Shown piece by piece: positions 31,329 to 44,023 of a stretch of 64,000 bases of DNA. Each line of letters opens with the position of its first letter. The stretch's first letter is position 1. Source of the DNA: an uncultured Verrucomicrobiae bacterium (GTDB lineage: Bacteria > Verrucomicrobiota > Verrucomicrobiia > Limisphaerales > Palsa-1400); assembly GCA_963707025.1 (NCBI GenBank), contig CAVPOM010000010.1, positions 160,001 through 224,000 of the forward strand, in the 5' to 3' direction. Below the pieces are notes generated by a model. That model worked only from the letters and a program-made list of their open reading frames with translations, ran no database searches and was not told the DNA's origin. The position numbers were made by a program, and so were the translations under genes.

Positions 31329-31444
31329 CTCCCACATAGTACAACCCCAAGATAAAGCCACAAGACCGACACTTTGCGCAACTGAATTGTTGCGCCAATA
31401 AACAGGCCTTGCCCGCCAACCGGAAAGGGCCGTATCCTCTCCGC

Positions 31445-32590
31445 ATGAGGCTCATCAACCCGTTGCTGGTTGTTCTCTTTGGCTTGGCGGCCGCCGCGCA
31501 AAACGATGTGCCGGCCATGAAACCCATCCCGGGCCGCAACACGGCGGCGCATCTGGCGGCCAGGGGATTCATGCGCGGCGCCAATATCGCCAATTACCTG
31601 GAAGTGCCGCCCGGCCAGGGCTGGGCCGTGGCCCACACCGTCGCCGATCTGAAGTTCATCCGCGCCGAAGGTTTTGACCACATCCGGCTGCCGGTCGGCT
31701 GGCATCACTACACCGGACCGGCGCCCGGCTTCACCTTGTCGGACGAAATCTTTGCCAAGGCGGACCAAATGGTGACCAACGCGACCGCGCTGGGATTGAA
31801 CGTGATGATTAACCTGCATCATTTCAACGAGTTCACCACCGATCCAGCCGCGCAGACGGCCTGGTTCCAGGCCATCTGGCGCCAAGTGGCCGCGCACTAT
31901 GCCGGCGCCCCGGCCGGCGTCGCCTTCGAACTGCTCAACGAGCCGAAGGACGCGGCCACCACCGTCCGGTTGAATCCGATTTTCGCCGAAACCATCCGCC
32001 AGATTCGCCAGAGCAATCCGCATCGCGCCATTTTTGTCGGCCCCGGCCGGTGGAACTCCCCGGACGAGTTGGTCAACCTCCGGCTGCCGGAGGACGATGA
32101 CAACATCATCGTTACGCTGCATTGTTACGATCCCATGTACTTCACCCATCAAGGCGCGGACTGGGCCGGGCCGGATCATCAGGTCACTGGCGTCCTTTTC
32201 CCGGGGCCGCCCAAAGCGCCCCTGCAACCCGATCCCGGCCTGGGCTTGAAGCCCTGGGTGCTGGACTGGTTTCGCCAGTACAACACGCTGCCTGCCGACC
32301 GCAATCCCTCCAGCCCCCTGGCCTTTGTCCCCAAGATTCAGCAGGCCAAAGCATGGTCGGAGAAATATGGGCGGCCGGTGCAGTTCGGCGAATTTGGGGC
32401 CTACACCAAGGCGGACCCGGAATCGCGGGCTCATTTTTACGGGGCGTTCCGGCAGGCGCTGGAGGAGGCGGGCATCGGCTGGACGATTTGGGATTGGAAA
32501 TCCGGTTTTAATTATTGGGACCCAAAAACGCAACAAGCGCTGCCCGGCATGCCGGAGGCCCTCTTCCCCGCCAAGACCCGGAAACCATAG
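31445..32590 (+). CDS. Glycoside hydrolase family 5 (cellulase-like), secreted
   Basis: Signal peptide, GFDHIRLPV, INLHH, ELLNEP acid/base, HCY, GEFG nucleophile. Confidence 0.93.
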   Translation: MRLINPLLVVLFGLAAAAQNDVPAMKPIPGRNTAAHLAARGFMRGANIANYLEVPPGQGWAVAHTVADLKFIRAEGFDHIRLPVGWHHYTGPAPGFTLSDEIFAKADQMVTNATALGLNVMINLHHFNEFTTDPAAQTAWFQAIWRQVAAHYAGAPAGVAFELLNEPKDAATTVRLNPIFAETIRQIRQSNPHRAIFVGPGRWNSPDELVNLRLPEDDDNIIVTLHCYDPMYFTHQGADWAGPDHQVTGVLFPGPPKAPLQPDPGLGLKPWVLDWFRQYNTLPADRNPSSPLAFVPKIQQAKAWSEKYGRPVQFGEFGAYTKADPESRAHFYGAFRQALEEAGIGWTIWDWKSGFNYWDPKTQQALPGMPEALFPAKTRKP

Positions 32591-32591
32591 A

Positions 32592-34256
32592 TCAAGCGTG
32601 GCGGTTCCACGCCAGCGCGATGGGGCAGAAACCGATCCTCGCCAGCGGTGTCAATAATACAATGCCGAGCGACAGAGTCAGAAACCCGGCCTGGTCATGA
32701 AACAGAATTGCCGCGGGGATGAACAGGGTGGCGGCCAGCAAAACCCAGACGGCCAGATAGGCCCGGAGGGCGGACGGAGCGAGCAGGCCGCGTTTGAGGG
32801 AAACGCGAAAGGCCAGAAAGGCCAGCAAGAATTTCACGACCACCAGACAAACCAGCAAACCGGGAACCAGCCGCCAGAAGGAATTCCAAGTCGCATCGTC
32901 CTGGGACAGCATGGCCAGCGTCATTCCACCCAGGTAAGCCGCCAACATCAGCCAGACCGGCATCTTGGCCAGCCACCGTTTGCCTGACCAAGTGAAACTC
33001 AGGCTGACCGCGATCAGACGCCAGCTCAAGATCATCAATCCCAGGAGGATAATCGCCCTGTGTTGCGCCAAGGCCGACGAAAACTGGTCCACCTCTTGAA
33101 AAACGCCCAACCACGGCATGGCACACATCGCCGCCAAAACCGCCAACCACGAAATCAACGCGCCGATCCCCTCGGCTTTCAGCGTGGCCATCATCATCGC
33201 GCCATTGCTCAACGGGCGATTCATCACGAACGGCAGGTCGGTTTGCGGCGGCGCCACCGCAAAGCAAAAATAGAGCGCTGGCGGCATGAAAAGCAAATAC
33301 ACCACGAAGCCTAACACGGTGTCATCCTGCATCGGCCCCAGCCTTGCCACGAAGCGCGCCAGCAGATGGATGGCCACCGGCACCAACGCCAGCCCGGCCG
33401 CGTAAAAGCTCAAGCGGCGCGCAAACCGCCGCCATTCAAACCACAACTGCGCCTGCGCCGGCGAAGCAAAGCGCTTTGGCCCCCGCATCTCCGCGCGCCC
33501 GGACCACCAGGCCAACGGCCATTGCCAGGCCCATCCCTGCCATTGCCCGTGCCGCATCTTTTGCAGACCGGCCGCGGCCAGCGCCATGCCCAGCACAAAA
33601 AGCGGCGGCAAGACAAATGGCGACTCAAAAATTTCGCGCTGCGCCGGCGAACCCAGAAAACAAAAGAGCAGCGCCATCAACACCACCATCCGGGTCCTGG
33701 GCCAGGCGGCCAGCGCCCAGACAATCCCTTGCGCCAGCGCCAGCAGCGTCATCCAGCCAAAGCAGTTTTGGTAGACGCCGAAGATGTCCACATGCGGTTG
33801 CGGGACCCAATATACCCAACATCCGTAAAGCACAATGATGGCAGACATCCCGCCCAGAAAAAGCCACCAGAACAGAAACGGAGTCGAAACCGGCAGCGTG
33901 AACAGGCGCGCCGGAAAGGTCATCGGGTCCTTGGTTTTGGGATCGAATTCCGTAAAGGTGAACATCCACGTCACAAACAGAAGACTCAGCACCATCGCCA
34001 CCGCCGGCCCGCACGCGAGAAACAGGAGATACAGCACCTGCACAACCCGCTGGAGCGACGGCCCGGTGTTGTTCATTAGCCCAGCCCGTTTGACCATTTC
34101 CTCCAAGGCATCCGGACTGCCCGGGTTGAACCCCGCCAGCGCGCAGAGCGCCGGATACATCACGGCGAAGAACAAAATGAAGCCGACGATGGCGATTAAG
34201 CGCAGGCGGTGTCTGCGCCAAAGTTCCCAGGCTAATGCCGTAGCGGGTCTGTTCAT
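32592..34256 (-). CDS. Multi-TM membrane protein, probable ABC-2-type permease of the YtrA-like operon
   Basis: Two repeated halves (AWELWRR / QLWFEWRR), many TMs, AGGAGG RBS. Follows the ABC ATPase. Confidence 0.8.
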   Translation of the reverse strand: MNRPATALAWELWRRHRLRLIAIVGFILFFAVMYPALCALAGFNPGSPDALEEMVKRAGLMNNTGPSLQRVVQVLYLLFLACGPAVAMVLSLLFVTWMFTFTEFDPKTKDPMTFPARLFTLPVSTPFLFWWLFLGGMSAIIVLYGCWVYWVPQPHVDIFGVYQNCFGWMTLLALAQGIVWALAAWPRTRMVVLMALLFCFLGSPAQREIFESPFVLPPLFVLGMALAAAGLQKMRHGQWQGWAWQWPLAWWSGRAEMRGPKRFASPAQAQLWFEWRRFARRLSFYAAGLALVPVAIHLLARFVARLGPMQDDTVLGFVVYLLFMPPALYFCFAVAPPQTDLPFVMNRPLSNGAMMMATLKAEGIGALISWLAVLAAMCAMPWLGVFQEVDQFSSALAQHRAIILLGLMILSWRLIAVSLSFTWSGKRWLAKMPVWLMLAAYLGGMTLAMLSQDDATWNSFWRLVPGLLVCLVVVKFLLAFLAFRVSLKRGLLAPSALRAYLAVWVLLAATLFIPAAILFHDQAGFLTLSLGIVLLTPLARIGFCPIALAWNRHA

Positions 34257-34266
34257 AAGAATCCTC

Positions 34267-35169
34267 CTATCCTGATTTAGTTCCGGCCCAGGCCACAAAA
34301 ATTTCATCCAGCGACGGCGAGTCCTCCGCCACCACCCGTCCGCCCGTGCGCGCCGCTGCGGCCACCGCCTCCTCCCGTTTGCCGTTGCAAATCGCCGTCC
34401 ATTCCCGCCCGCCGCCAGTGATGCTCAAGACCCCCGGCACCTTGGGAGGGGACGGCTGGGGCGAATCAAACCGCAGCACCAGCCGGTGATGGTTCTCCTT
34501 CACCTCATCCAGCGCGCCGGCCAAAACCACCCGCCCGTTGAACATCATGGCCAGGTCGTCCGCCACCCGTTCCACTTCCTCCAGCAAGTGCGACGAGAAA
34601 AAAACGGTGCGGCCTTCGTCGGCGACCGTGCGAATAATGGCTTCCAGAATGTCCCGCCGCACTACCGGGTCCAGCCCCGAGCTGGGCTCATCCAGCAGGA
34701 GCAGTTCCGGCCGGTAGGCCAGCGCGATCAGCAATCCAGCCTTGGCATTTTCGCCGCGCGAGAGCGTCCTGATTTTCGCGCGCGGGGCCAGGCCGAATTG
34801 CCGCCGCAACTCCTCGGCGTAGGCCATGTCCCACTTCGGATAAAACGCCGCCGTGTAGCGCAGCAACTCGTCCACCCGCATCCACGCCGGCAGGTCCCGG
34901 TTCTCCGACAAATATCCAATCCGGCCCAGCACCGCCACCGCATCGGCCACCGGATCCAAACCAAAGACCCGCACCTCTCCGCCCTGGGCCTTCAGCCGGC
35001 CGAGGACATGTTTGATCAGGCTGGTTTTGCCCGCGCCGTTCGCGCCGACCAGGCCAAAGACGCGCCCGCGCCCGACTTGCAGCGATACTTGGTTGAGCGC
35101 GAGGGTGGCGCCGAATCGCCGGTTCAAGCCGGTGATTTCCACGGCGGGGAGTGCATCGGTTGTGTTCAT
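34267..35169 (-). CDS. ABC transporter ATP-binding protein (YtrB-like)
   Basis: GANGAGKTS Walker A, LSRGE signature, LLLLDEP Walker B, SSH. Confidence 0.95.
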   Translation of the reverse strand: MNTTDALPAVEITGLNRRFGATLALNQVSLQVGRGRVFGLVGANGAGKTSLIKHVLGRLKAQGGEVRVFGLDPVADAVAVLGRIGYLSENRDLPAWMRVDELLRYTAAFYPKWDMAYAEELRRQFGLAPRAKIRTLSRGENAKAGLLIALAYRPELLLLDEPSSGLDPVVRRDILEAIIRTVADEGRTVFFSSHLLEEVERVADDLAMMFNGRVVLAGALDEVKENHHRLVLRFDSPQPSPPKVPGVLSITGGGREWTAICNGKREEAVAAAARTGGRVVAEDSPSLDEIFVAWAGTKSG

Positions 35170-35558
35170 TTGTTCTCCTTGGGTTGAAGAGACTGGCTGC
35201 GCTCTTTGATCAGGCGGAACAATTCCTGCGGTTCCACCTCCAGATGCCGGGCCTCCGCCAGCAGGGCGTCCACCCGCTCGGAGACAATCCTGAGCCGTTC
35301 CTTGCGGGCCAGCGGCGAGGCGGCGTCGGAGATGTAGGTGCCGGAACCGTGGCGCTTCTGCACCACCCCTTCCCGCTCCAGCTCCAGATAGGCCCGCGCC
35401 ACCGTGTTGGGGTTGACCAAAAGCTGGTGGGCCAGCACGCGAATCGGAGGAATTTCGTCCCCCGCCGCCAGCCGCCCGGAAGCGACCAGGTATTTCACCT
35501 GATTGGCGATCTGCCAATAGATCGGAACTCCGTCCCCCGTTGAAACATGCAGTTGCAT
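35166..35558 (-). CDS. GntR family regulator, YtrA subfamily
   Basis: PIY.QI...GDEIP.IR.LA....VNPNTVARAY.ELE.EG...G.GTYI, with a short C-terminus. Confidence 0.95.
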   Translation of the reverse strand: MQLHVSTGDGVPIYWQIANQVKYLVASGRLAAGDEIPPIRVLAHQLLVNPNTVARAYLELEREGVVQKRHGSGTYISDAASPLARKERLRIVSERVDALLAEARHLEVEPQELFRLIKERSQSLQPKENK

Positions 35559-35598
35559 TGTGTACTCATACACTAATACACTTTCCCGTCCCCGTCAA
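35559..35598 (-). promoter_or_regulatory. Promoter with overlapping palindromic YtrA-type operator
   Basis: TTGACG(35598-35593)-17bp-TAGTGT(35575-35570). The palindrome GTGTATTA-gtgta-TGAGTACAC covers the -10 and abuts the ATG. Confidence 0.75.
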
Positions 35599-35632
35599 TC
35601 GAATTTTTCACTTTTTTTGTAATGCCCCCTGA

Positions 35633-35743
35633 CGCAGCGCGCCCGTCCCCTGGCGCGGCAACGTCCGGACTTCCGCCGCGCCCGGCAAAGCCCGGCACCG
35701 CCGAGTCCCTGCCGGATGCTGCGCCCGAGGGCGGACGCACTCC
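35633..35743. repeat. REP doublet, third copy of the RAYT-associated family
   Basis: CGCAGCGCGCCCGTCCCCTGGCGCGGCAACGTCCG ... TGCTGCGCCCGAGGGCGGACGCACTCC. Confidence 0.8.
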
Positions 35744-35762
35744 TCCATTGACGCATCACCGC

Positions 35763-37526
35763 TCATGGCTGCGCCGGCAGGAGGCGGAGGCTGCGCAAAT
35801 TCATGGGATGCCAGCCCTGGGCCACGGGCTGGACGACGAGGTTAAACATGCCGGGGTTGGGGATTTCCAGGGTGCTAGCCAGGTTCGTGCTGGTGAAGAC
35901 CGTGTAGCTCCCCGTCGCCGGGGCCGCGCCTTGAAGTTGTTGCGCGCCGACCAGGACTTGAAATTTGCCCGAGGCTTCCGCGGCGATTTCGGCGACGAGG
36001 CGGAACTTGCCGGGACGATCCACTCGGAAGGTCCAGCTCGCCGTGTCCGCCGGGTTGGTCCAATAGCCGATGTTGTCCTTGCCCCCGCCGAGCTCGTATT
36101 GCAAGCCGCCGCGCAGTTCCGCCTCGCTGGCCATCAGGCGCACCGTGCCGTCGGCTTGCTGCTCGATCGGCCGGACGGCCACTTCCGGCGCGCCTTTGAT
36201 TTTCAATGCCACCGTGGAGGAAATCGGGTCCGGGGCGGCGTCCGGCACCCGCACTTCCACGCCCTCCGGCGTGCTGCTGAAGGGCAAGGCGGTTCCGCCC
36301 GCGAGCAATTGCGCCGAGATCACCGAGTTTTTCAATCCGGGCACAATCAGTTTGCCATCCTGCGGCCAGTTGAAGACATGGAGGTAAAGGGTCGTCTCGT
36401 TGCCGGAAATTATTTTTGTGCAACGGCCCCACGGCAGCCGTTTGAAGGGACTGGCGGTGGTGGCGTAAATGGCGTCGCCGTTGACCTTCATCCAGGCGCC
36501 GACGGCCTTGAGGCGCTCAATGCTCGGCTGGGGAAACAGGCCTTCGCGGGTCGGCCCGACGTTGAGCAGATAATTGCCGCCCTTGCTGGCGATGTCCACC
36601 AGGTTGCGGATGAGGGTTTCGCTGGATTTCCAATTGGTGTCGTCGCTTTTGAAGCCCCAGGTGTCGTTCATGGTCATGCAAGTTTCCCAATCCCGTCCGC
36701 CAAAGCCCGTGGCGGGAATGGATTGTTCGGGCGTTTCGGTGTCCCCCTTGTAGTCGCCGCCGAGGCGGTTGTTGTGGATGATGCCCGGCTTGAGCTTGAG
36801 CAATTCGATGAGCTTGCCGGCGCGCGCCTGCGTCATGTCGCAGGGGGTGTCCCACCACAGCACGGCGGGGAATTCGCCGTAGTTGGAGAGCAACTCGCGC
36901 ACCTGCGGCACGGCCACTTTGTCAATGTAATCGTCCATGTCATGCGCCTGGGCCGGGTCCCATTTGCCGCTGCAGGCGGCGCCCCCGTTGTTCCAATCCT
37001 GCGCCTGGGAATAATAAAAGCCGAGTTTGAGGCCGTATTTGCGGCAGGCGGCGGCGAGCGGCTTTAAAACATCCTGGCCATAAGGGGTCGCCTGCACGAT
37101 GTTCCAATGACTGGCCTTGGTGTCGAAATTGGCGAAGCCGTCGTGATGTTTGGCGGTGATGACGATGTATTTCATGCCGGCTTCCCGGGCGAGTTGCACC
37201 CACTGGTCGGGATCGTATTTGACGGGATTGTATTCCTTGGCGAAGGCCTGATAGGCGGCCATCGGAATCTTGCCATTGCACATGATCCACTCGCCAAGGT
37301 CCGGCACCCGCCCGCCGTGGTAGGTGCCGGCGGGAACGGAATAGACGCCCCAGTGAATGAACATGCCGAAGCGCGCCTCGCGCCACCAATTCAGGCGCGC
37401 GTCGTGTTGGGCGGGGGTTTCGTTGGCGTAAGGATCGGGCGTATCGGCGGCCAACAGCACGGCAGGAAGCAACCCGGCCAGCAGCAGACCGGCCAGCGCG
37501 GACGCGGCTTTGATTTTCTTGATCAT
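35763..37526 (-). CDS. Alpha-L-fucosidase (GH29) with C-terminal CBM-like domain
   Basis: Signal peptide, WWREARFGMFIHWG, ITAKHHDGF, LWWD, WETCMT, GGNYLLNVGP. Confidence 0.95.
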   Translation of the reverse strand: MIKKIKAASALAGLLLAGLLPAVLLAADTPDPYANETPAQHDARLNWWREARFGMFIHWGVYSVPAGTYHGGRVPDLGEWIMCNGKIPMAAYQAFAKEYNPVKYDPDQWVQLAREAGMKYIVITAKHHDGFANFDTKASHWNIVQATPYGQDVLKPLAAACRKYGLKLGFYYSQAQDWNNGGAACSGKWDPAQAHDMDDYIDKVAVPQVRELLSNYGEFPAVLWWDTPCDMTQARAGKLIELLKLKPGIIHNNRLGGDYKGDTETPEQSIPATGFGGRDWETCMTMNDTWGFKSDDTNWKSSETLIRNLVDIASKGGNYLLNVGPTREGLFPQPSIERLKAVGAWMKVNGDAIYATTASPFKRLPWGRCTKIISGNETTLYLHVFNWPQDGKLIVPGLKNSVISAQLLAGGTALPFSSTPEGVEVRVPDAAPDPISSTVALKIKGAPEVAVRPIEQQADGTVRLMASEAELRGGLQYELGGGKDNIGYWTNPADTASWTFRVDRPGKFRLVAEIAAEASGKFQVLVGAQQLQGAAPATGSYTVFTSTNLASTLEIPNPGMFNLVVQPVAQGWHPMNLRSLRLLPAQP

Positions 37527-37560
37527 AAAATGGTGTTATATACAGGCCCCCCTGGGCGGG

Positions 37561-37631
37561 AAGTGAAATTAGGTGAAACCAGGTGAAACCAGGTGAAATT
37601 AAGTGAAATTAGGTGAAATTAAGTGAAAACC
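37561..37631. repeat. 10-bp tandem repeat (ARGTGAAAYY)7
   Basis: AAGTGAAATT AGGTGAAACC AGGTGAAACC AGGTGAAATT AAGTGAAATT AGGTGAAATT AAGTGAAAAC. Confidence 0.9.
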
Positions 37632-37738
37632 TGGCGGTGGTTTTGAACCGCGAACGCCGAGTGGAGTGGCGGAGTAATGGAGTGATGGAGTGATGGGGTG
37701 GATGCTCATGCTCAAGGTGGTCAAGCTTCACAATTATG

Positions 37739-39696
37739 GTAGAGTAGGCGAAGTGGAAGGAGGCGGATTGAACTGACCGCAGTTGTCAGTCTCGCGCTGC
37801 CACTTCGCCCCTCATCGAACCGAACGGACGGATTTCCCATATTCGGCTCTCCGAACTCATTCATCGGGCCGCCTTCCACTTCGCCGTGGTCGGCAGTTCA
37901 TAGAGTCCATAACGCTGGTGCAACTGCTCGGGAACGTAGTGTTCCCACAGGCTGCGGCGGCAACCGTGTTTGCGCCACAGCCAGCGCCGAAAGCGGTTTT
38001 GGCTGTAGTGTTTCATCCGGTTCATCACCGAGACGCTGTTGCCGTAGTGGAAGTAGCCCGCCCATCCGCGCAAGACTTGGTTGACCTCTTTGACCACCTC
38101 CTGTATCGGACGCCCCTGCGTCCAGTGGTTGAGGATGCCGCCCAGTTTCTCGCGCAGGGCCCCCCGGCTTTTCTGGCTGGGTTGAACGTGCAGGTAGCCG
38201 CGCCCTCCAAAGGACTTGCGCCAGGTCAGGTTGAAGCCCAGGAAGTTGATCCCTTCCTTGCGAATGTTCACAATTCGGGTTTTGACTTCGTTGAGGGTCA
38301 GCCCTTTGGCTCGAAGCCATTTCTTGAGCCGCGCTATCAGCCCTCCGCCGCACCCCGCCGCGCACGCGATGACAAAGTCATCGGCGTAGCGCACCATGCG
38401 GGCTTGGCCGGAGGTTTTCTCGTTCACCCCGTGATCCAGCGGGTTGAGGTAGAGGTTGGCCAGCAGCGGCGAGATGACCCCGCCTTGCGGCGTGCCGCGC
38501 CGGTTGGGGATCACTCGCTTGGTGCCGTCCTGGTCTTCCTCCGCGACCGGGGCGCGCAGCCAGCTCTTGAGGAGCCGCAGCACGCTGCCGTCGCTGACCC
38601 GCCGGGCCACGGCCTTCATCAGTTCCCGGTGCGGAATCGTGTCGAAATATTTCGTCAGGTCCGCGTCGATGATTTCCACGTAGCCTTGCTGCACTGCTTG
38701 TTGGATTTCCGCAATGGCTTGGTGTGCCCGGCGTTTGGGCCGAAAGCCGTAGGAGCGCGGATGAAAGTCCGCCTCCAAGATCGGCATCAGCACCAGATAC
38801 ACCGCCGTTTGCACCACCCGGTCCTTGACCGTCGGGATGCCCAACGGCCGTTCCCCTCCGCTGCTCTTGGGAATCATCACCCGCCGCACCGGGCTGGCCC
38901 GATACGTCTTGGCTTTGAGTTCTGCTTGCAGGCGGTCGAGCCATTGCTGGCGCAGGGCCGGGTCGGCGGTGATGGACTCCATACTCTGTCCGTCCACTCC
39001 CGCGGCCCCGCCGTTGCGCTGTTGCGCTGCCAAGGCGGTTTCGAGCACGTCCTTGCGCAGCAATTCCCCATACAGGCTCCAGAACCGATACTTCGGCTCT
39101 GCTTTGGCTTTCCGATAGAGCGCGATTTGAAGCTGCCGAACTTTCTCCGGGGTTGCTATCCGGGTCGCCCCGGCCATCCCCGCATCCTTCGCTTCGCCTC
39201 CACGCATTGAGCAAGTGTTCCCCCTTTGCGTTCGCTCGCGCAACTCCCGGCGGAAATCCGCCTGGAGCGCAAACAAGTCCACGCTACTATGAGGAACTCC
39301 GACTTCTCCGGCAGGGCCGCTCGCCTGACTGGTCTTGCCAGCTTGCGCGGGCGGTTGGGCTGGCCGCCCGCCGCCGGAGTTCTCCCAGCTTACCTTGGTT
39401 GAACTTCCAGACGTGCCGTCCACGCCGACCCCGCCGGAGCGTTGAGAAGGCTCTGACTGTTGCCCTGCCTCCTCCCTGCGGCCTTCGCCGGTCAAACAGC
39501 GGCTCGGCTTGTCTCCGGTTCTAAACTTATCGAGGCTCATTGGATGTGGTTCATTTTCATTACGGCCCGTCTGTTCATCTCCCTCAGCTTCCAACCCCGC
39601 CTCGCGGCGGCGCTGTTGAGGTCGTGTTCCGTCGTGAACAGCCTAATTCGACGGACGGGACTTTCACCCGCGTTCCAACCAACTTCACTGGCGCAA
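37739..39696 (-). mobile_element. Group II intron (IIB, bacterial class F-like), apparently full length
   Basis: 5' end TTGCGCCAG at 39696, followed by GCGGGTGAAAGTCCCG. Domain V GAGCCGAATATGGGAAATCCGTCCGTTCGGTTC (37849-37817). Domain VI with bulged A ending CCTACTCTAC at 37739. RT ORF inside. Class is assigned from recalled RT N-terminus resemblance only. Confidence 0.9.
37861..39177 (-). CDS. ltrA: Group II intron reverse transcriptase/maturase (no endonuclease domain)
   Basis: GAAGVDG, RPLGIPTVKDRVVQ, SYGFRPKRRAH, DADLTKYFDTIPH, GTPQGGVISPLLANLYL, RYADDF, FLGF, and domain X LRGWAGYF. Confidence 0.96.
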   Translation of the reverse strand: MAGATRIATPEKVRQLQIALYRKAKAEPKYRFWSLYGELLRKDVLETALAAQQRNGGAAGVDGQSMESITADPALRQQWLDRLQAELKAKTYRASPVRRVMIPKSSGGERPLGIPTVKDRVVQTAVYLVLMPILEADFHPRSYGFRPKRRAHQAIAEIQQAVQQGYVEIIDADLTKYFDTIPHRELMKAVARRVSDGSVLRLLKSWLRAPVAEEDQDGTKRVIPNRRGTPQGGVISPLLANLYLNPLDHGVNEKTSGQARMVRYADDFVIACAAGCGGGLIARLKKWLRAKGLTLNEVKTRIVNIRKEGINFLGFNLTWRKSFGGRGYLHVQPSQKSRGALREKLGGILNHWTQGRPIQEVVKEVNQVLRGWAGYFHYGNSVSVMNRMKHYSQNRFRRWLWRKHGCRRSLWEHYVPEQLHQRYGLYELPTTAKWKAAR

Positions 39697-39726
39697 CGTT
39701 TGACCCGGTTTGACCGGTTTGACCGG
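39697..39726 (-). repeat. 9/10-bp tandem repeat (CCGGTCAAA)3 forming the intron 5' exon
   Basis: The minus strand reads CCGGTCAAA CCGGTCAAA CCGGGTCAAA CG immediately before TTGCG. Confidence 0.85.
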
Positions 39727-39999
39727 CGGGGGAAAAATGCATCCTCCTCCGCAGGGCCTTCCACCTTCGCCGGGCCTACGGAGGACAGGACGGAGGACAG
39801 GAAATGCAAAATGCAGAATGCAAAATCGGAAGCAGGCCGATAACGTCATGGTTTCCAGTGGTGCGACAAATTGGGGCGACATCCCGCCTCCGCCAAGCCT
39901 GCGGCGCGGCAAGGGGAAGGCACAGGAAAAGGATGAACAGGATTCTGAGAGGCGGACCCTCGCCCGGGCCGTCAGTTGCACATGGAACCTCGGACGCTT

Positions 40000-40082
40000 T
40001 GGAGTGTGCCGACGGGTCGGCACCGCTTTGCTCTCCGGGAATCGTTCCCAATCCAAAAGCGGGAGCCAGCTCCCGCACTCCA
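40000..40082. repeat. GGAGTG-type REP-like doublet
   Basis: TGGAGTGTGCCGACGGGTCGGCACCGCTTT ... AAAGCGGGAGCCAGCTCCCGCACTCCA. Each arm has its own hairpin. Confidence 0.7.
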
Positions 40083-40107
40083 TAAAAACCGCCCTCATAA
40101 CTAATGA

Positions 40108-40136
40108 AGATTAGCAAATGGAGGTTTCTTTGTCAA
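40108..40136 (-). promoter_or_regulatory. Near-consensus sigma70 promoter reading toward the repeat region and intron
   Basis: TTGACA(40136-40131)-17bp-TAATCT(40113-40108), with TGn extension and an upstream A/T tract. Confidence 0.7.
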
Positions 40137-40269
40137 AGGATATTTTGAAAAAAAGAGGCGGGGCTGGCGCCATCGCCAGGGCCTTGGCGGACAAGGGCTT
40201 GCGCATGAAAGGATCTGCGGAAGGACGATGAGGAAATGCGATTATGCGGCGACCCGTTTATGGCCCTAA

Positions 40270-42564
40270 TCACTTCTTTGGTTGGTTTTGCTCTAGTTTA
40301 TCGAACACTTCAATTACTGGCGCGAGCAATTCTTTGTCAGGTTGAAGCTGTGCTTGCTGGATTGCGCGCAGGTAATCCTGGTACAGGCGACCAATGAGTT
40401 GAGCGAAGCCCGGCGGCCCCTTTTGGAAATGCGGTGTTATCGCCCGGATGCCTTGCGCAAACGTCGCGGCGGCTTGCGCGTGCCGCTCCATTCTGTGGAG
40501 TACTCCACCCCGCACACCGTAAGAAGTCGCCAAGTCCGGCAGGAACGCCTCTGGCCGCGCCATTGCCAATTGCTCATAAATCCGCACCGCCTCCTGCGCC
40601 TTGTCCATCGCCTCCTCGCACCGGCCCAAATCGCTTAAGCTGGTGGCCAGATTGGTTAGTGACTTCGCCAAGTTTGGCAAGAACACGTCTGGCCGCGCTT
40701 TTGCCAGTTGCTCTCGTATCCGAACCGCTTCCTGCGCCTTGTGCAGGGCATCCCCGTGCCGGCCCAAAGCGTTCAACCTGATGGCGAGATTGTTCAGTGA
40801 CGTTGCCACCTCCGGCAGGAAGGCATCTGGCTGGACCTTTGCCAATTGCTCATAAATCCGCGCCGCTTCTTGCGCCTTGTCCAGAGCCTCCTCCCGCCCG
40901 CCCAACTCGCTGAACCGGTTGGCCAGATTACTTAGTGATCCGGCCACGTTCGGCAGGAACGCATCTGGCTGCTCCTTGGCCAATTGCTCATAAATCCGCG
41001 CCGCCTCTTGCGCCTTGTCCAGAGCCTCCTCCGGCCGGCCCAACTCGCTGAACCGGTTGGCCAGATTATTTAATGATCCGGCCACGTTCGGCAGGAACGC
41101 GTCTGGCCGCGCCTTGGCCAATTGCTGATAAATCCGCGCCGCCTCCTGTGCCTTGTCCAGCGCCTCCTCGCGCCTTCCCAAATCGCCCAACCTGTTGGCC
41201 AGATTGTTTGCTGATCCTGCCAAGCTCGCCAGGAACGTGTCTGGCCGGGCCTTGGCCAATTTCTCATAAATTCGCGTTGCCTCCTGCGCCTTGTCCAGCG
41301 CCTCCTCGCGCCGCCCCAAAGCGCTCAACATGCTGGCCAAGTTGTGCAGTGCGGTGGCGAAGCTCGGCAGGAAAGTGTCTGGCCGGGCGTTTGCCAATTG
41401 TTCATCAATCCTCACCGCCTCCTGCGCCTTGAGCAGCGCCTCCTCGCGCTGGCCCAACTCGCTCAACCTGGTCGCCAGATTGTTCAGTGACATCGCCACG
41501 TCCGGGAGGAACGCCTCCGGCTGAGTCTTGGCCAACTGCTCATAAATCCGCGCTGATTCCCGCGCCTTTTCCAGTGCTTCCTCGCGCCGGCCCAAATCGC
41601 TCAACATGTTGGCCAGATTGTTCAGCGACATCGCCACGTCCGGTAGAAACACTTCTGGCTGTGCCTTTGCCAATTGCTCAAAAATCCGCGCTGCCTCCCG
41701 TGCTTTGGCCAGCGCCTCGTCACGGTATCCCAACTCACTCAGAACCATCGCAAGATTATTCAAAACTCCTGCGTGCATGGCGTCGGGCCGAGGCTGTTGT
41801 TTGATTTCCGACGCATCTGCGAGGGAGTTCAATGCCTCGCGCCAGCATGATTCAGCCAATTCTAAACGAGCCTTCTCGTGGAAACCCGCTGCGGCGCGCA
41901 TGAGCAGTTCCGTCCGCTGAAAGGCAAGGTCTTTGCGGTTGGCAAGACGATGAGCCTGTTGCAGCGTGTAATCCGGGTCGCTTGCCGCCTCAACTCCGAT
42001 GAGGGCCTGTTGACTTTGCATTGAAGCTCCCTCTAGGCGGGACTCATCCGGTTCACTTTGCGGCAGCAAGCGCACCACCGTTGAGCGGACGGACCAGAAA
42101 TCCGGGGCGGCCTCGCGAAAGATTTGCTGCAGCCAGGGTTCGCCGACAAAGACCAGAGGAACGGGCAAGGCTTTGAGTATGCGGTTGCGATGCAGATTTA
42201 ATAAGGTGAACATCTTGCCGCAGGCAGCCTTCCAAGCGTCATCGGTGCGGTCGGGGCTCAAGAAGCTTACCCAAACACCGCCGATGCCATCCGGGTTTAG
42301 GCTGAGGAGCTTCTCGCCCAAGCGGATGATTTCCGAGGCGGAAGAGAAATGTATGCGTTCCAAGCGATGGTTGTCCTTTAGGAGGCGTTCCGCCAAGGCT
42401 TGTTCGCAAATCAGCGCCCCCGAAGTCCCAGGCAGGAGGAGGACGAGCAGGGACGAGCCGGCCGCCAACTCGAAATGAGCCTCGAACAGGCGCCAATCTT
42501 CAAAGGCTGCCTCGCCGAAAAAGCGAAGAACCTCGTGATCGGCTGGTGATTCGACCGTGGGCAC
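40270..42564 (-). CDS. Tetratricopeptide-repeat protein: N-terminal alpha/beta (possibly degenerate NTPase-like) domain plus nine 46-aa repeats
   Basis: Repeat consensus LNNLA..LS.LGRREEALDKAQEA.RIYEQLAKA.PDAFLP.VA.S with a 138-bp DNA period. N-domain has LNLHRN...PLVF...AAPDFWSVRS. GTG start 6 bp after the ATPase stop. Confidence 0.9.
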   Translation of the reverse strand: MPTVESPADHEVLRFFGEAAFEDWRLFEAHFELAAGSSLLVLLLPGTSGALICEQALAERLLKDNHRLERIHFSSASEIIRLGEKLLSLNPDGIGGVWVSFLSPDRTDDAWKAACGKMFTLLNLHRNRILKALPVPLVFVGEPWLQQIFREAAPDFWSVRSTVVRLLPQSEPDESRLEGASMQSQQALIGVEAASDPDYTLQQAHRLANRKDLAFQRTELLMRAAAGFHEKARLELAESCWREALNSLADASEIKQQPRPDAMHAGVLNNLAMVLSELGYRDEALAKAREAARIFEQLAKAQPEVFLPDVAMSLNNLANMLSDLGRREEALEKARESARIYEQLAKTQPEAFLPDVAMSLNNLATRLSELGQREEALLKAQEAVRIDEQLANARPDTFLPSFATALHNLASMLSALGRREEALDKAQEATRIYEKLAKARPDTFLASLAGSANNLANRLGDLGRREEALDKAQEAARIYQQLAKARPDAFLPNVAGSLNNLANRFSELGRPEEALDKAQEAARIYEQLAKEQPDAFLPNVAGSLSNLANRFSELGGREEALDKAQEAARIYEQLAKVQPDAFLPEVATSLNNLAIRLNALGRHGDALHKAQEAVRIREQLAKARPDVFLPNLAKSLTNLATSLSDLGRCEEAMDKAQEAVRIYEQLAMARPEAFLPDLATSYGVRGGVLHRMERHAQAAATFAQGIRAITPHFQKGPPGFAQLIGRLYQDYLRAIQQAQLQPDKELLAPVIEVFDKLEQNQPKK

Positions 42565-42570
42565 AAAAAC

Positions 42571-43938
42571 TCATTCCTTTAAATTCAAACGCTGGACAAT
42601 CTTTTTGACCTCATCCCGAATCAAGGGATGAATGTCGTAATAATCGCCGCCATTTGAAAAATACAGCACCAGGTGCTGATTGAGCAAACGACTGATGCGC
42701 GATACTTCCTGCGCACTGCTGTTCCGAAGGCCGGAGTCGCGATGTTCTGCAATGGAAGAAAGCCGTGTGGCGTCCTCTTCCGAAATCGGCAAATATTGTT
42801 CACGAATGCGCTGAATCGCTCCTTCGATTACAGGTTGTGACGCGGGCAGCGTTTCGGTCTGCGTCGAAACTCGGACAAGGACTTCTCGAATCAGGCGAAG
42901 GAGGTCGCGGAAATGGCCCCCGCTCGCTTCGATGAGAGGATCTGCGCAGGGAAGTTCGTGGCCAATCAGCCGGGCAAAACCTTCCTTTTCCAAACGACGT
43001 TCGATGAGATGTCGAACAGCAGTCCAGACCGGCTTGATGCGGGTTCGAGCGGGATCTCTATCCCACAAGCGGAGGGAGGGAAGCAGTTCGATCTCCTGGC
43101 CGTGAAGGACGAAAGGCAGCCAGGGTGGAACCGTATAAATGGCATGGACGAACGGGAGTTTCAGTTTGTCCAAATGTCCAGCAAAGAGGCGTTCAATGCT
43201 GGCGATAACCTCGCTTTCATTGCTGAGGGAACCGCTGATTTGCTCGAGTTGGTCAAAGATGAGCACAATCCTGGCCTCGGCGCCGCACTTTGCCCGCAAC
43301 GCCTTGACGCCTTCTTCGATGAATCGGTTAACTTCCTTCTTCAACTCACCGAGGCGGTTTTCAAGAAACGCCCGGAGCTTTTGGCGGAAGGTGTTGGACT
43401 CCTTCAAAGCTAATTTGAGATCAACACCGCCTTTCAATCCCCCGAGCACGTCCTTTGCAGGATTTTCGGCCTCGATTTTCGCGGTCGCTGCCGTCACCTC
43501 GACGGAAGTTGTTGTGAGGTAGTTTGTAATCCTGGCCCACCACGAGTCCCGCCCGATATCAACTCCGTGACTTGCCTCTGCGCTGTCATTGAACGCGCCG
43601 GCCAAAATCAATAACAAATCCGAAATGTCCAGAGGCTCGGATGGGTTCAAGTAGTCGAGTGCATCCGCATAAAGAACAATCGCCCCATTCTTTTCAAGCT
43701 CCCGCCGCAAACGAAAAAGCTCGGTCGTCTTGCCGGAGCCGTTGAAGCCTGAAAACAATTGCAAACTCTCCGCCCCCGCCCATTCGATTTGATCCCGCAA
43801 ACGGGCAACCGGGTCTTCACAATGACCGCCGGCGTAGATAGGCTGATACCGGGGATCGTCCGGCAGCAATGGTTCGCGTGGATTGCACCGATTAAACAGC
43901 TCTTTGAGCAAGGACTTGTCGGCGGCTGATAATGCCAT
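42571..43938 (-). CDS. P-loop ATPase, AAA+/STAND-like
   Basis: Walker A GFNGSGKTT, Walker B IVLIFDQLEQ, ASGGHFRDLLRL helical motif, C-terminal YYDIHPLI. Confidence 0.9.
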   Translation of the reverse strand: MALSAADKSLLKELFNRCNPREPLLPDDPRYQPIYAGGHCEDPVARLRDQIEWAGAESLQLFSGFNGSGKTTELFRLRRELEKNGAIVLYADALDYLNPSEPLDISDLLLILAGAFNDSAEASHGVDIGRDSWWARITNYLTTTSVEVTAATAKIEAENPAKDVLGGLKGGVDLKLALKESNTFRQKLRAFLENRLGELKKEVNRFIEEGVKALRAKCGAEARIVLIFDQLEQISGSLSNESEVIASIERLFAGHLDKLKLPFVHAIYTVPPWLPFVLHGQEIELLPSLRLWDRDPARTRIKPVWTAVRHLIERRLEKEGFARLIGHELPCADPLIEASGGHFRDLLRLIREVLVRVSTQTETLPASQPVIEGAIQRIREQYLPISEEDATRLSSIAEHRDSGLRNSSAQEVSRISRLLNQHLVLYFSNGGDYYDIHPLIRDEVKKIVQRLNLKE

Positions 43939-44023
43939 GTGCGGGATGATAACAGGAAACTGGCTGGGGTAAAGCCGTTAAAGGCCGAGAATCGCCCGAC
44001 AGCATGCCGTGCCCATCCTCCTC

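Follow-up and report, generated by a model that had tools for sequence, protein, structure and literature searches.

Kaur et al. 2021 predicted a mobile two-gene operon, nSTAND2, in which an active and an inactive STAND NTPase are predicted to form a hetero-oligomer (PMC8195603). In BREX, the inactivated AAA+ domain of BrxB lends an arginine to the ATP pocket of BrxC, and the ATPase activity rises 2-6-fold (PMC13326643). In clamp loaders, the SRC arginine finger and a motif of the central helix come from the neighboring subunit (PMC9010301). One-chain prokaryotic NLR-type receptors have been surveyed by Lee et al. 2026 (PMC13581612). Here we analyze a pair of genes in a stretch of 64,000 nucleotides, referred to as the window, that covers positions 160,001-224,000 of contig CAVPOM010000010.1 (GCA_963707025.1); all coordinates below are window positions. 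Gene 1 encodes an ATPase, and gene 2 encodes a partner that starts with a predicted inactive AAA+ domain and continues into tetratricopeptide repeats (TPRs). The module is real and widespread, and from sequence and predicted folds we tentatively read it as a mobile, NLR-like immune sensor-switch that is split over two chains, with the activated ATPase oligomer as executor.

Pairing of the Two Genes

The initial annotation placed two genes at this position, 6 bp apart. Both open reading frames (ORFs) and the gap were confirmed, and all of the motifs it named are present (GFNGSGKTT, IFDQLEQ, SGG..RD, and IHPLI in gene 1; LN..RN, PLVF, and APDFWSVRS in gene 2).

43938-42571, minus strand: gene 1, ATPase of 455 residues (ORF call)
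42564-40270, minus strand: gene 2, partner of 764 residues with a GTG start (ORF call), made up of a pseudo-AAA+ domain, a linker, a constant helical hairpin, a TPR array, and a cap

The two genes are coupled nearly without exception. Of 89 loci collected (L001-L089), one was without the ATPase and six had too little downstream DNA, leaving 82 for scoring; among them are the window and several duplicates, and 49 such sequences went into the N-domain profile. The next downstream ORF contains the N-domain of gene 2 in 81 of the 82, which bears out the co-occurrence that had been expected. The sole miss is the second piece of a split ATPase, whose true partner does match. The most common spacing between the genes is a 4-nucleotide overlap (34/80), and pairwise identity in one chain goes along with that in the other (Spearman 0.67 for 62 pairs, among which kin are not independent). 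Matching partners also accompany the distant homologues G099, G382, and G016 and those of five cyanobacterial plasmids, and the partner of G456 contains the motifs with no profile match. We consider it very probable that the two proteins form a physical complex.

The distant pair G016 (L112:4048-6328) has a fragmented ATPase beside a partner that looks intact. On plasmid NZ_CP030841.1 (L090:9260-10924), the annotation starts the TPR partner late and misses an N-domain that lies in frame upstream. A query of genome contigs with a single protein returned three true loci.

The N-domain of Gene 2 Is Predicted to Be an Inactive AAA+ Core

The predicted model of the gene 2 N-domain (predicted local distance difference test (pLDDT) score 88.2) contains five strands in AAA+ order.

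42055-42564, minus strand: pseudo-AAA+ core, residues 1-170, five strands, no Walker A or B, no lid (predicted model and fold search)
42184-42201, minus strand: LN..RN motif, residues 122-127, on the helix after the degenerate Walker B strand; Asn-123 and Arg-126 in 63/63 near homologues
42085-42108, minus strand: APDFWSVR motif (APDFWSVRS is residues 153-161); Arg-160 in 56/63, at the SRC-finger position by end-register

The 63 sequences are the distinct near homologues of the N-domain that are long enough. For residues 4-170, the best folds are nearly all AAA+ cores, led by Elg1 (Z 11.2, root mean square deviation (r.m.s.d.) 3.2, 142 residues aligned), a chain of AVAST5 (Z 10.6), and RFC (Z 10.5), and Foldseek ranks Hda and DnaC at the top. 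The Walker A and B positions are unconserved among homologues, and neither a lid nor a winged helix-turn-helix was seen in the model. The domain is predicted to be an inactive version of the AAA+ fold that lacks Walker motifs, in line with the degenerate NTPase-like domain put forward earlier. A profile comparison with gene 1 gave a weak match (E 0.014-0.14), yet in register with the Walker A strand, so that descent of the N-domain from gene 1 is at most a possibility.

Gene 1 Is a Cdc6/Orc1-like ATPase

The predicted model of gene 1 (pLDDT 90.8) most closely resembles Cdc6 (Z 15.0, r.m.s.d. 3.3, 242 residues aligned), TnsC (14.7, 4.2, 291), and PAB2304 (13.9, 4.8, 288). Plant resistosomes (10.8-11.8), Avs3 (9.2), and BrxC (8.8) score lower. 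The ATPase had been called NLR-like; STAND-type marks are indeed present, but in fold Avs and plant NLRs are more distant from it than Cdc6/Orc1, TnsC, and archaeal ATPases are.

42571-43938, minus strand: Cdc6/Orc1-like (basal STAND-type) ATPase, with an AAA+ core, a large insert, a lid, and a winged helix (predicted model, fold search)
43723-43749, minus strand: Walker A, GFNGSGKTT, residues 64-72; the family mostly has Arg at 66, gene 1 has Asn
43405-43515, minus strand: insert between strands 2 and 3, residues 142-178, with polar/apolar alternation; predicted amphipathic β-hairpin
43240-43269, minus strand: Walker B strand, IVLIFDQLEQ (IFDQLEQ is residues 227-233); Asp-229 in 99% and Glu-232 in 95% of 127 representatives
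42904-42924, minus strand: lid motif, SGGHFRD, residues 339-345; Arg-344 in 96% of the 127
42616-42780, minus strand: winged helix (model) ending in YDIHPL (IHPLI is residues 436-440); His-437 in 91% of the 127

Gly-69, Lys-70, and Arg-315 are present in all 127 representatives, and gene 1 deviates from its family at R66N and W433Y. Arg-344 is an arginine of the sensor-2 type, and His-437 resembles the MHD histidine of STAND proteins. The ratio of nonsynonymous to synonymous substitution rates (dN/dS) of gene 1 against three relatives is 0.12-0.16.

Searches of Pfam, NCBIfam, and PADLOC with gene 1 returned nothing above the curated cut-offs, with a PADLOC match that was faint at most. Matches to PifA, Sll1717, and ComGA were rejected, being at the P-loop level only, and a sequence search of solved structures likewise gave P-loop matches. 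Among 65 aligned homologues, 60 touch ATPase_2, below its cut-off, and 58 touch AAA_16, all weakly. The family is large, has members in several phyla, and is not covered by any model of the libraries searched. It comprises 653 representatives (clusters at 50% identity) at E ≤1e-30 and 1936 at E ≤1e-10, mostly 420-480 residues long. Look-alikes in the Atlas, compared by features, are mostly unnamed or partly KAP-labeled clusters, many of them cyanobacterial.

The insert, whose alternation recurs across nearly all homologues, stands out by its β-moment, for which the mean z is 2.36 and values above 1.64 occur in 85% of 126 rows, against -0.45 to 0.21 for three helical control segments. It is rich in Gly, Lys, Thr, and Glu and has a median length of 26 residues, the longest being 47. 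The gene 1 model renders it as helix and coil, at the lowest confidence in the chain. A short soluble hairpin is situated at the same place in archaeal ATPases. From its alternation pattern, the amphipathic insert may be an output element.

An Arginine That May Be Supplied in Trans

In the 127 ATPase representatives, the stretch from the sensor-1 strand to strand 5 contains no conserved arginine; in the near clade, 22 of 76 sequences have one somewhere in it, in no fixed column. Structural alignments of the N-domain end at offset zero relative to 1iqp, 1sxj_C, and 7sgz_C. As a reference, the SRC-type arginine of MgsA from the same genome maps by end offset to residue 160 of 1iqp and of Rfc3. 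Provided that there are no gaps near the alignment ends, Arg-160 of gene 2 would be situated at the SRC finger position of clamp loaders. The pattern is reversed in six cyanobacterial pairs (five interrelated plasmids), where an arginine precedes strand 5 in the ATPase and none is found in the partner. Of the distant pairs, G016 has the arginine in the partner, and G099 shows the cyanobacterial pattern. An arginine alternating between the chains is a suggestive picture, drawn from aligned sequences with few independent events. The arginine of the partner probably acts in trans on the ATPase.

The Tail of Gene 2 Is Shared with One-chain NLR-type Proteins

The C-terminal part of gene 2 consists of three elements.

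41785-41979, minus strand: constant helical hairpin, DP..AL..A.RL...RA, residues 196-260, common to TPR-type partners (model)
40527-41718, minus strand: array of 46-residue TPR repeats with high internal identity
40273-40526, minus strand: C-terminal cap, 57-71% identical to the C termini of four one-chain STAND-TPR proteins

The repeat unit is 138 bp (8.6 copies, 79% matches), giving a period of 46 residues. There are nine TPR_10 stretches, the same as the number of TPR-like repeats in the initial annotation. Pfam returns only TPR families for gene 2, and a sequence search of solved structures returns designed TPRs. Across 48 repeats from eight proteins (two further proteins yielded no repeats with the pattern used), variation peaks at positions 7, 14, 15, 18, and 27, with overall nonsynonymous (pN) and synonymous (pS) values of 0.18 and 0.44. 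High internal repeat identity combined with variable positions is known for fungal and bacterial NLR sensors (10.1101/2020.01.06.895854, PMC13449251).

When the tail of the window protein is used as a query, a Walker A precedes the repeats in 111 of the best 119 non-self matches, and the N-domain is present in none of the 119; this ranking favors long arrays, and partners of the same family as gene 2 are closer still. Four one-chain STAND-TPR proteins are 62-67% identical to the tail over ~500 residues, through the last residue. Five STAND-TPR proteins with a window-type tail (P0348, P0429, P0439, P0374, and P0440) have a short N terminus rich in Gly, Asn, Gln, and Val and no enzyme. We presume a resemblance of these N termini to bacterial amyloid signaling motifs.

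The expectation that homologues swap their C-terminal domains held, with TPR, SIR2-NACHT-FGE, TIR-NACHT, and nSTAND1/WD40 tails among the partners. The L057 partner contains SIR2_2, NACHT, and FGE-sulfatase domains, and that of L063, which is cut by a contig end, contains TPR, TIR_2, and NACHT. Matches among cyanobacterial partners are to nSTAND1 in two cases and to WD40 in two, with one partner counted under both. At L057:5733-12709, the gene next to the partner encodes a stand-alone SIR2-NACHT-FGE protein, and the partner consists of the N-domain joined to a copy of that protein, which is 75% identical and starts at its first residue. Tail identity to an adjoining NB-ARC-TPR gene is 67% in L017, and in the related L029 it is 59% to the neighbor. 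Repeat periods among partners are 40, 41, 42, 46, or 47. When the eight tail classes are placed on a quick tree of 41 ATPases, 10 changes are required, where 7 is the minimum possible, and the two NLR-type tails nest within well supported TPR clades. The genome of the window itself contains no NLR with a closely similar tail, the best other match being ~30%.

The Pair Is Accessory and Mobile

The ATPase is present in 5 of 61 close genomes and in 5 of 401 genomes of the phylum (four candidates scored per genome), the window genome included. Copies of the pair occur on plasmids; no relatives were found in phage records and viral contigs. In its own genome (88% complete), there is one copy each of gene 1 and gene 2. 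In relative G004, the gene that lies beside the pair in the window, encoding a von Willebrand factor type A (VWA) protein, is followed directly by the gene found at window position 31393, which makes the 12.6 kb in between (31393-44023) accessory. By labels read from the ORF list, this segment contains glycoside hydrolases, a regulator-ABC-membrane cluster, an intron, and the pair. In G003, a different gene occupies the site and the pair is on another contig, with 78% identity as compared with 90% for the VWA gene. As had been suspected, the pair belongs to the accessory, mobile part of the genome, with changing insertion sites, and not to a vertically inherited core.

The fraction of G+C at third codon positions (GC3) of gene 1 is 0.596, the 6th percentile among 2423 long script-called ORFs of the genome, and that of gene 2 is 0.69, the 23rd percentile; the VWA gene has 0.826. 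Gene 1 is compositionally foreign and gene 2 mildly so, and the earlier remark that both genes are AT-richer than their surroundings holds for gene 1 and is weak for gene 2. The pair is under purifying selection (dN/dS 0.12-0.19). The synonymous distance to L001 differs between the genes (0.58 for gene 1 and 0.28 for gene 2), which suggests recombination between them.

The setting is as first described, with the VWA gene upstream of the pair and a group II intron and repeats downstream. Promoter-like and terminator-like sites are no more frequent than expected by chance. The intron (37700-39700, minus strand) encodes a reverse transcriptase/maturase and has 16 matches of at least 1 kb in the genome, itself included. 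The copies displayed are >99% identical, and the intron therefore appears recently expanded. A 10-bp tandem repeat (37561-37628, 6.6 copies) has 85 BLAST matches across the genome, and dispersed repeats lie between the intron and gene 2 at 39690-39840 (72 matches) and 39960-40095 (28 matches). A tie of the pair to the intron was rejected because the intron is multicopy in the genome, and a tie to the VWA operon was also rejected; relatives in the genus retain the VWA gene without the pair beside it.

Possible Functions of the Pair

In the reading that we tentatively prefer, the dead AAA+ domain of the partner would dock on the nucleotide site of the ATPase and supply its missing arginines. Binding of a foreign protein would be the task of the repeat array, and execution would fall to the activated ATPase oligomer, possibly via its amphipathic insert. 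The oligomer is favored as executor because no third gene is conserved and most partners have no enzyme domain. This output step is the weakest part of the proposal.

Immune-type fusions are found on both chains. A Calothrix plasmid (AP018277.1, L107:7884-15391) encodes the ATPase, an ATPase-TIR_2 fusion, and a partner that combines two tandem N-domains with helical repeats and nSTAND1. In P0286 and P0303, an ATPase of the family is fused to an ABC ATPase that matches HEC-01A or Septu PtuA models. As judged from their domain content, these fusions favor a conflict role, and we lean toward an anti-invader role for the pair.

The gene neighborhoods were scanned for 172 of 252 ORFs around 43 loci at a strict threshold; short, edge, and far ORFs were dropped by hand. 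A few NLR-, CHAT-, NYN-, and antitoxin-type genes are found, and many of the ORFs have no family.

Several observations weigh against the preferred reading. Most of the neighbors that match a family are housekeeping genes, and no recurrent defense gene, third gene, or conserved effector was found among the 172. Two expectations of the initial annotation thereby find no backing: there was no sign of defense-island enrichment among the scanned neighbors, for which no control set was scored, and no conserved gene for an effector acting in trans was seen at the loci. No PADLOC model matches the ATPase or the N-domain, and one distant ATPase (G307) has no adjoining partner. With respect to the finger, a lysine at ATPase position 275, present in 50 of 76 sequences, could replace it. 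The register of Arg-160 rests on alignment end points and a gapless assumption, and against p97, for which we rely on remembered numbering, the end points place it one to two residues off. With respect to sensing, position 7 is the only repeat position that clearly exceeds the synonymous rate (1.37, uncorrected). Of 36 scanned partners, 34 contain only TPR families. Furthermore, the partners of L057 and of the cyanobacteria already hold a full NLR with NTPase and effector, so that the ATPase need not be the executor there.

The last point is the basis of an alternative that we consider unlikely but worth weighing. Here, the ATPase would be a dedicated remodeler or regulator and the pseudo-AAA+ domain an address tag. 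The ATPase would load, reset, or disassemble the fused NLR or TPR adaptor (a substrate recruiter), modulating other immune or signaling proteins and executing nothing itself. The tag indeed precedes whole NLRs that bring an NTPase and an effector of their own (L057, L063, and the cyanobacterial nSTAND1-WD40 partners), the L017 partner and its NB-ARC-TPR neighbor have a common tail (67%), and BrxB bridges BrxC to PglZ in a similar manner (PMC13326643). On the other hand, NLRs are missing from the surroundings of most loci, and the window genome lacks one whose tail closely resembles that of gene 2.

It is improbable that the pair is an accessory switch for signaling or DNA binding outside defense, in which the winged helix of an ORC/TnsC-like oligomer would bind DNA or a host protein after the TPR partner has sensed a host cue. 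The best folds are those of DNA-binding initiators and transposition ATPases, and the housekeeping neighbors fit such a role. The patchy distribution, the changing insertion sites, the sharing of NLR-type tails, the high internal repeat identity, and the existence of TIR, SIR2, PtuA-like, and HEC-01A-like fusions all argue against it.

A sensor/helper NLR pair with an executioner hidden in the ATPase is a quite improbable arrangement. The partner would capture NLR tails and lend the finger, and the ATPase would oligomerize so that its hairpins form a membrane β-barrel, killing the infected cell. Insertion of the hairpin into the membrane would account for the absence of an effector gene; strands of bacterial gasdermins, at 17-18 residues each (PMC10153256), are longer than most inserts of the family would allow, which counts against it, as does the short soluble hairpin of archaeal ATPases.

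The outputs first proposed, triggered depletion of ATP or an effector encoded elsewhere in the genome, are very unlikely. Nothing is missing from the catalytic motifs, activation in trans is plausible, and a distant effector gene would be invisible to neighborhood scans. But the cassette moves alone between sites and phyla, a poor fit with a required third gene, and the known analogue is stimulated just 2-6-fold (PMC13326643). A selfish addiction-type cassette, in which capping by the partner keeps a toxic ATPase in check and the repeats are of no consequence, would suit the near-obligate pairing, the translational coupling, and the plasmid copies, but is hardly credible given that the tails are large, selected, and repeatedly exchanged and that one ATPase stands alone.

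If the preferred reading of the pair as a two-chain NLR-type receptor is true, it would show a route by which a sensor is split from its switch and gated by an arginine lent in trans, and how sensor tails pass between the pair and ordinary NLR genes. Defense surveys that score island context or fused effectors would tend to overlook such pairs. With two genes and clear point mutants, the role of inactive STAND domains becomes directly testable.

Comparison with Known Systems

The marks of the STAND class are a Walker A, a Walker B with a second acidic residue at +3, a helical lid, and a winged helix with a terminal histidine, and gene 1 has all of these. STAND lids contain a GxP motif in place of the sensor-2 arginine. 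The gene 1 clade has GGHFR at this point and not GxP for the arginine; three distant homologues have GGHPR, GGCPR, and GGNPR. With Cdc6/Orc1, TnsC, PAB2304, and SSO1545 (Z 13-15), gene 1 shares the AAA+ core, the lid with a sensor-2-type arginine, and the winged helix. It differs from them in sequence (11-16% identity), in the long amphipathic insert, in the lack of a conserved finger of its own, and in its near-obligate pseudo-ATPase partner.

Two other assignments were rejected. For the iSTAND ternary system, which Kaur et al. 2020 describe with a MoxR-vWA pair, no VWA or MoxR family was found among the scanned neighbors, and the VWA neighbor is local to this site. For the KAP NTPases, Pfam KAP_NTPase matched 0 of 65 homologues at E 0.01; the look-alike Atlas clusters carry a KAP label on 14-95% of their members, and distant kinship is possible. 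The name Npun2340/2341 is used by Kaur et al. 2021 for the NTPase central to one-chain FGS proteins (PMC8195603).

Compared with the one-chain NLR-type receptors (Avs, bNACHT), the pair uses the same sensor types (TPR, WD40, FGE), and its window tail is 63-67% identical to STAND-TPR proteins. Unlike in Avs, the sensor and the active NTPase are on separate chains, connected via a pseudo-ATPase, and there is no N-terminal effector. The PADLOC Avs models gave no match. Six accession numbers of relatives are absent from the seven supplements of PMC13581612, although the clade itself may still be in that survey.

The resemblance to nSTAND2 (PMC8195603) lies in a mobile two-gene operon with one active and one inactive STAND-type NTPase, the inactive chain having TPRs and variable C-terminal modules. 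nSTAND2 has an arginine finger in both chains, whereas the ATPase of the pair has no conserved finger. The inactive nSTAND2 chain keeps its winged helix-turn-helix and mostly ends in GT4 or HEPN; the dead domain of the pair is a bare core, and most of its partners are TPR-only, with GT4 or HEPN in 0 of 36. The nSTAND2 Pfam family was not returned for the 65 ATPases (E 0.01) or for the partners, and the partner motif was not found in 12 of 13 supplements of PMC8195603. The pair shares the theme of nSTAND2 and lacks three of its four features.

No description of the ATPase-partner family was found in the literature searched, with subscription journals largely outside its coverage. Within these searches, the claim of an undescribed module holds for the family, which is unnamed in Pfam, NCBIfam, and PADLOC, where no described system was matched; the theme of an operon with an active and an inactive STAND protein had already been predicted for another family (Kaur et al. 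2021).

The BrxC-BrxB couple of type I BREX combines an ORC-like AAA+ ATPase with a small inactivated AAA+ domain that gives an arginine, stimulates hydrolysis, and bridges onward (PMC13326643). No PglX, PglZ, or other BREX gene is present at the locus, and no BrxB match was found in the genome. A profile comparison of the N-domain with six BrxB sequences was not significant (probability ~1%, few BrxB rows), BrxB lies outside the top 50 fold matches of the N-domain, and the fold of gene 1 matches BrxC weakly (Z 8.8 as compared with 15.0 for Cdc6); what the two couples share is the general AAA+ fold. BrxB, as described there, also has no repeat sensor, unlike gene 2. By analogy, the closest mechanism would nevertheless be that of BrxC-BrxB, and the pair, apparently a member of neither family, can be likened to a BrxC-BrxB couple joined to an NLR sensor.

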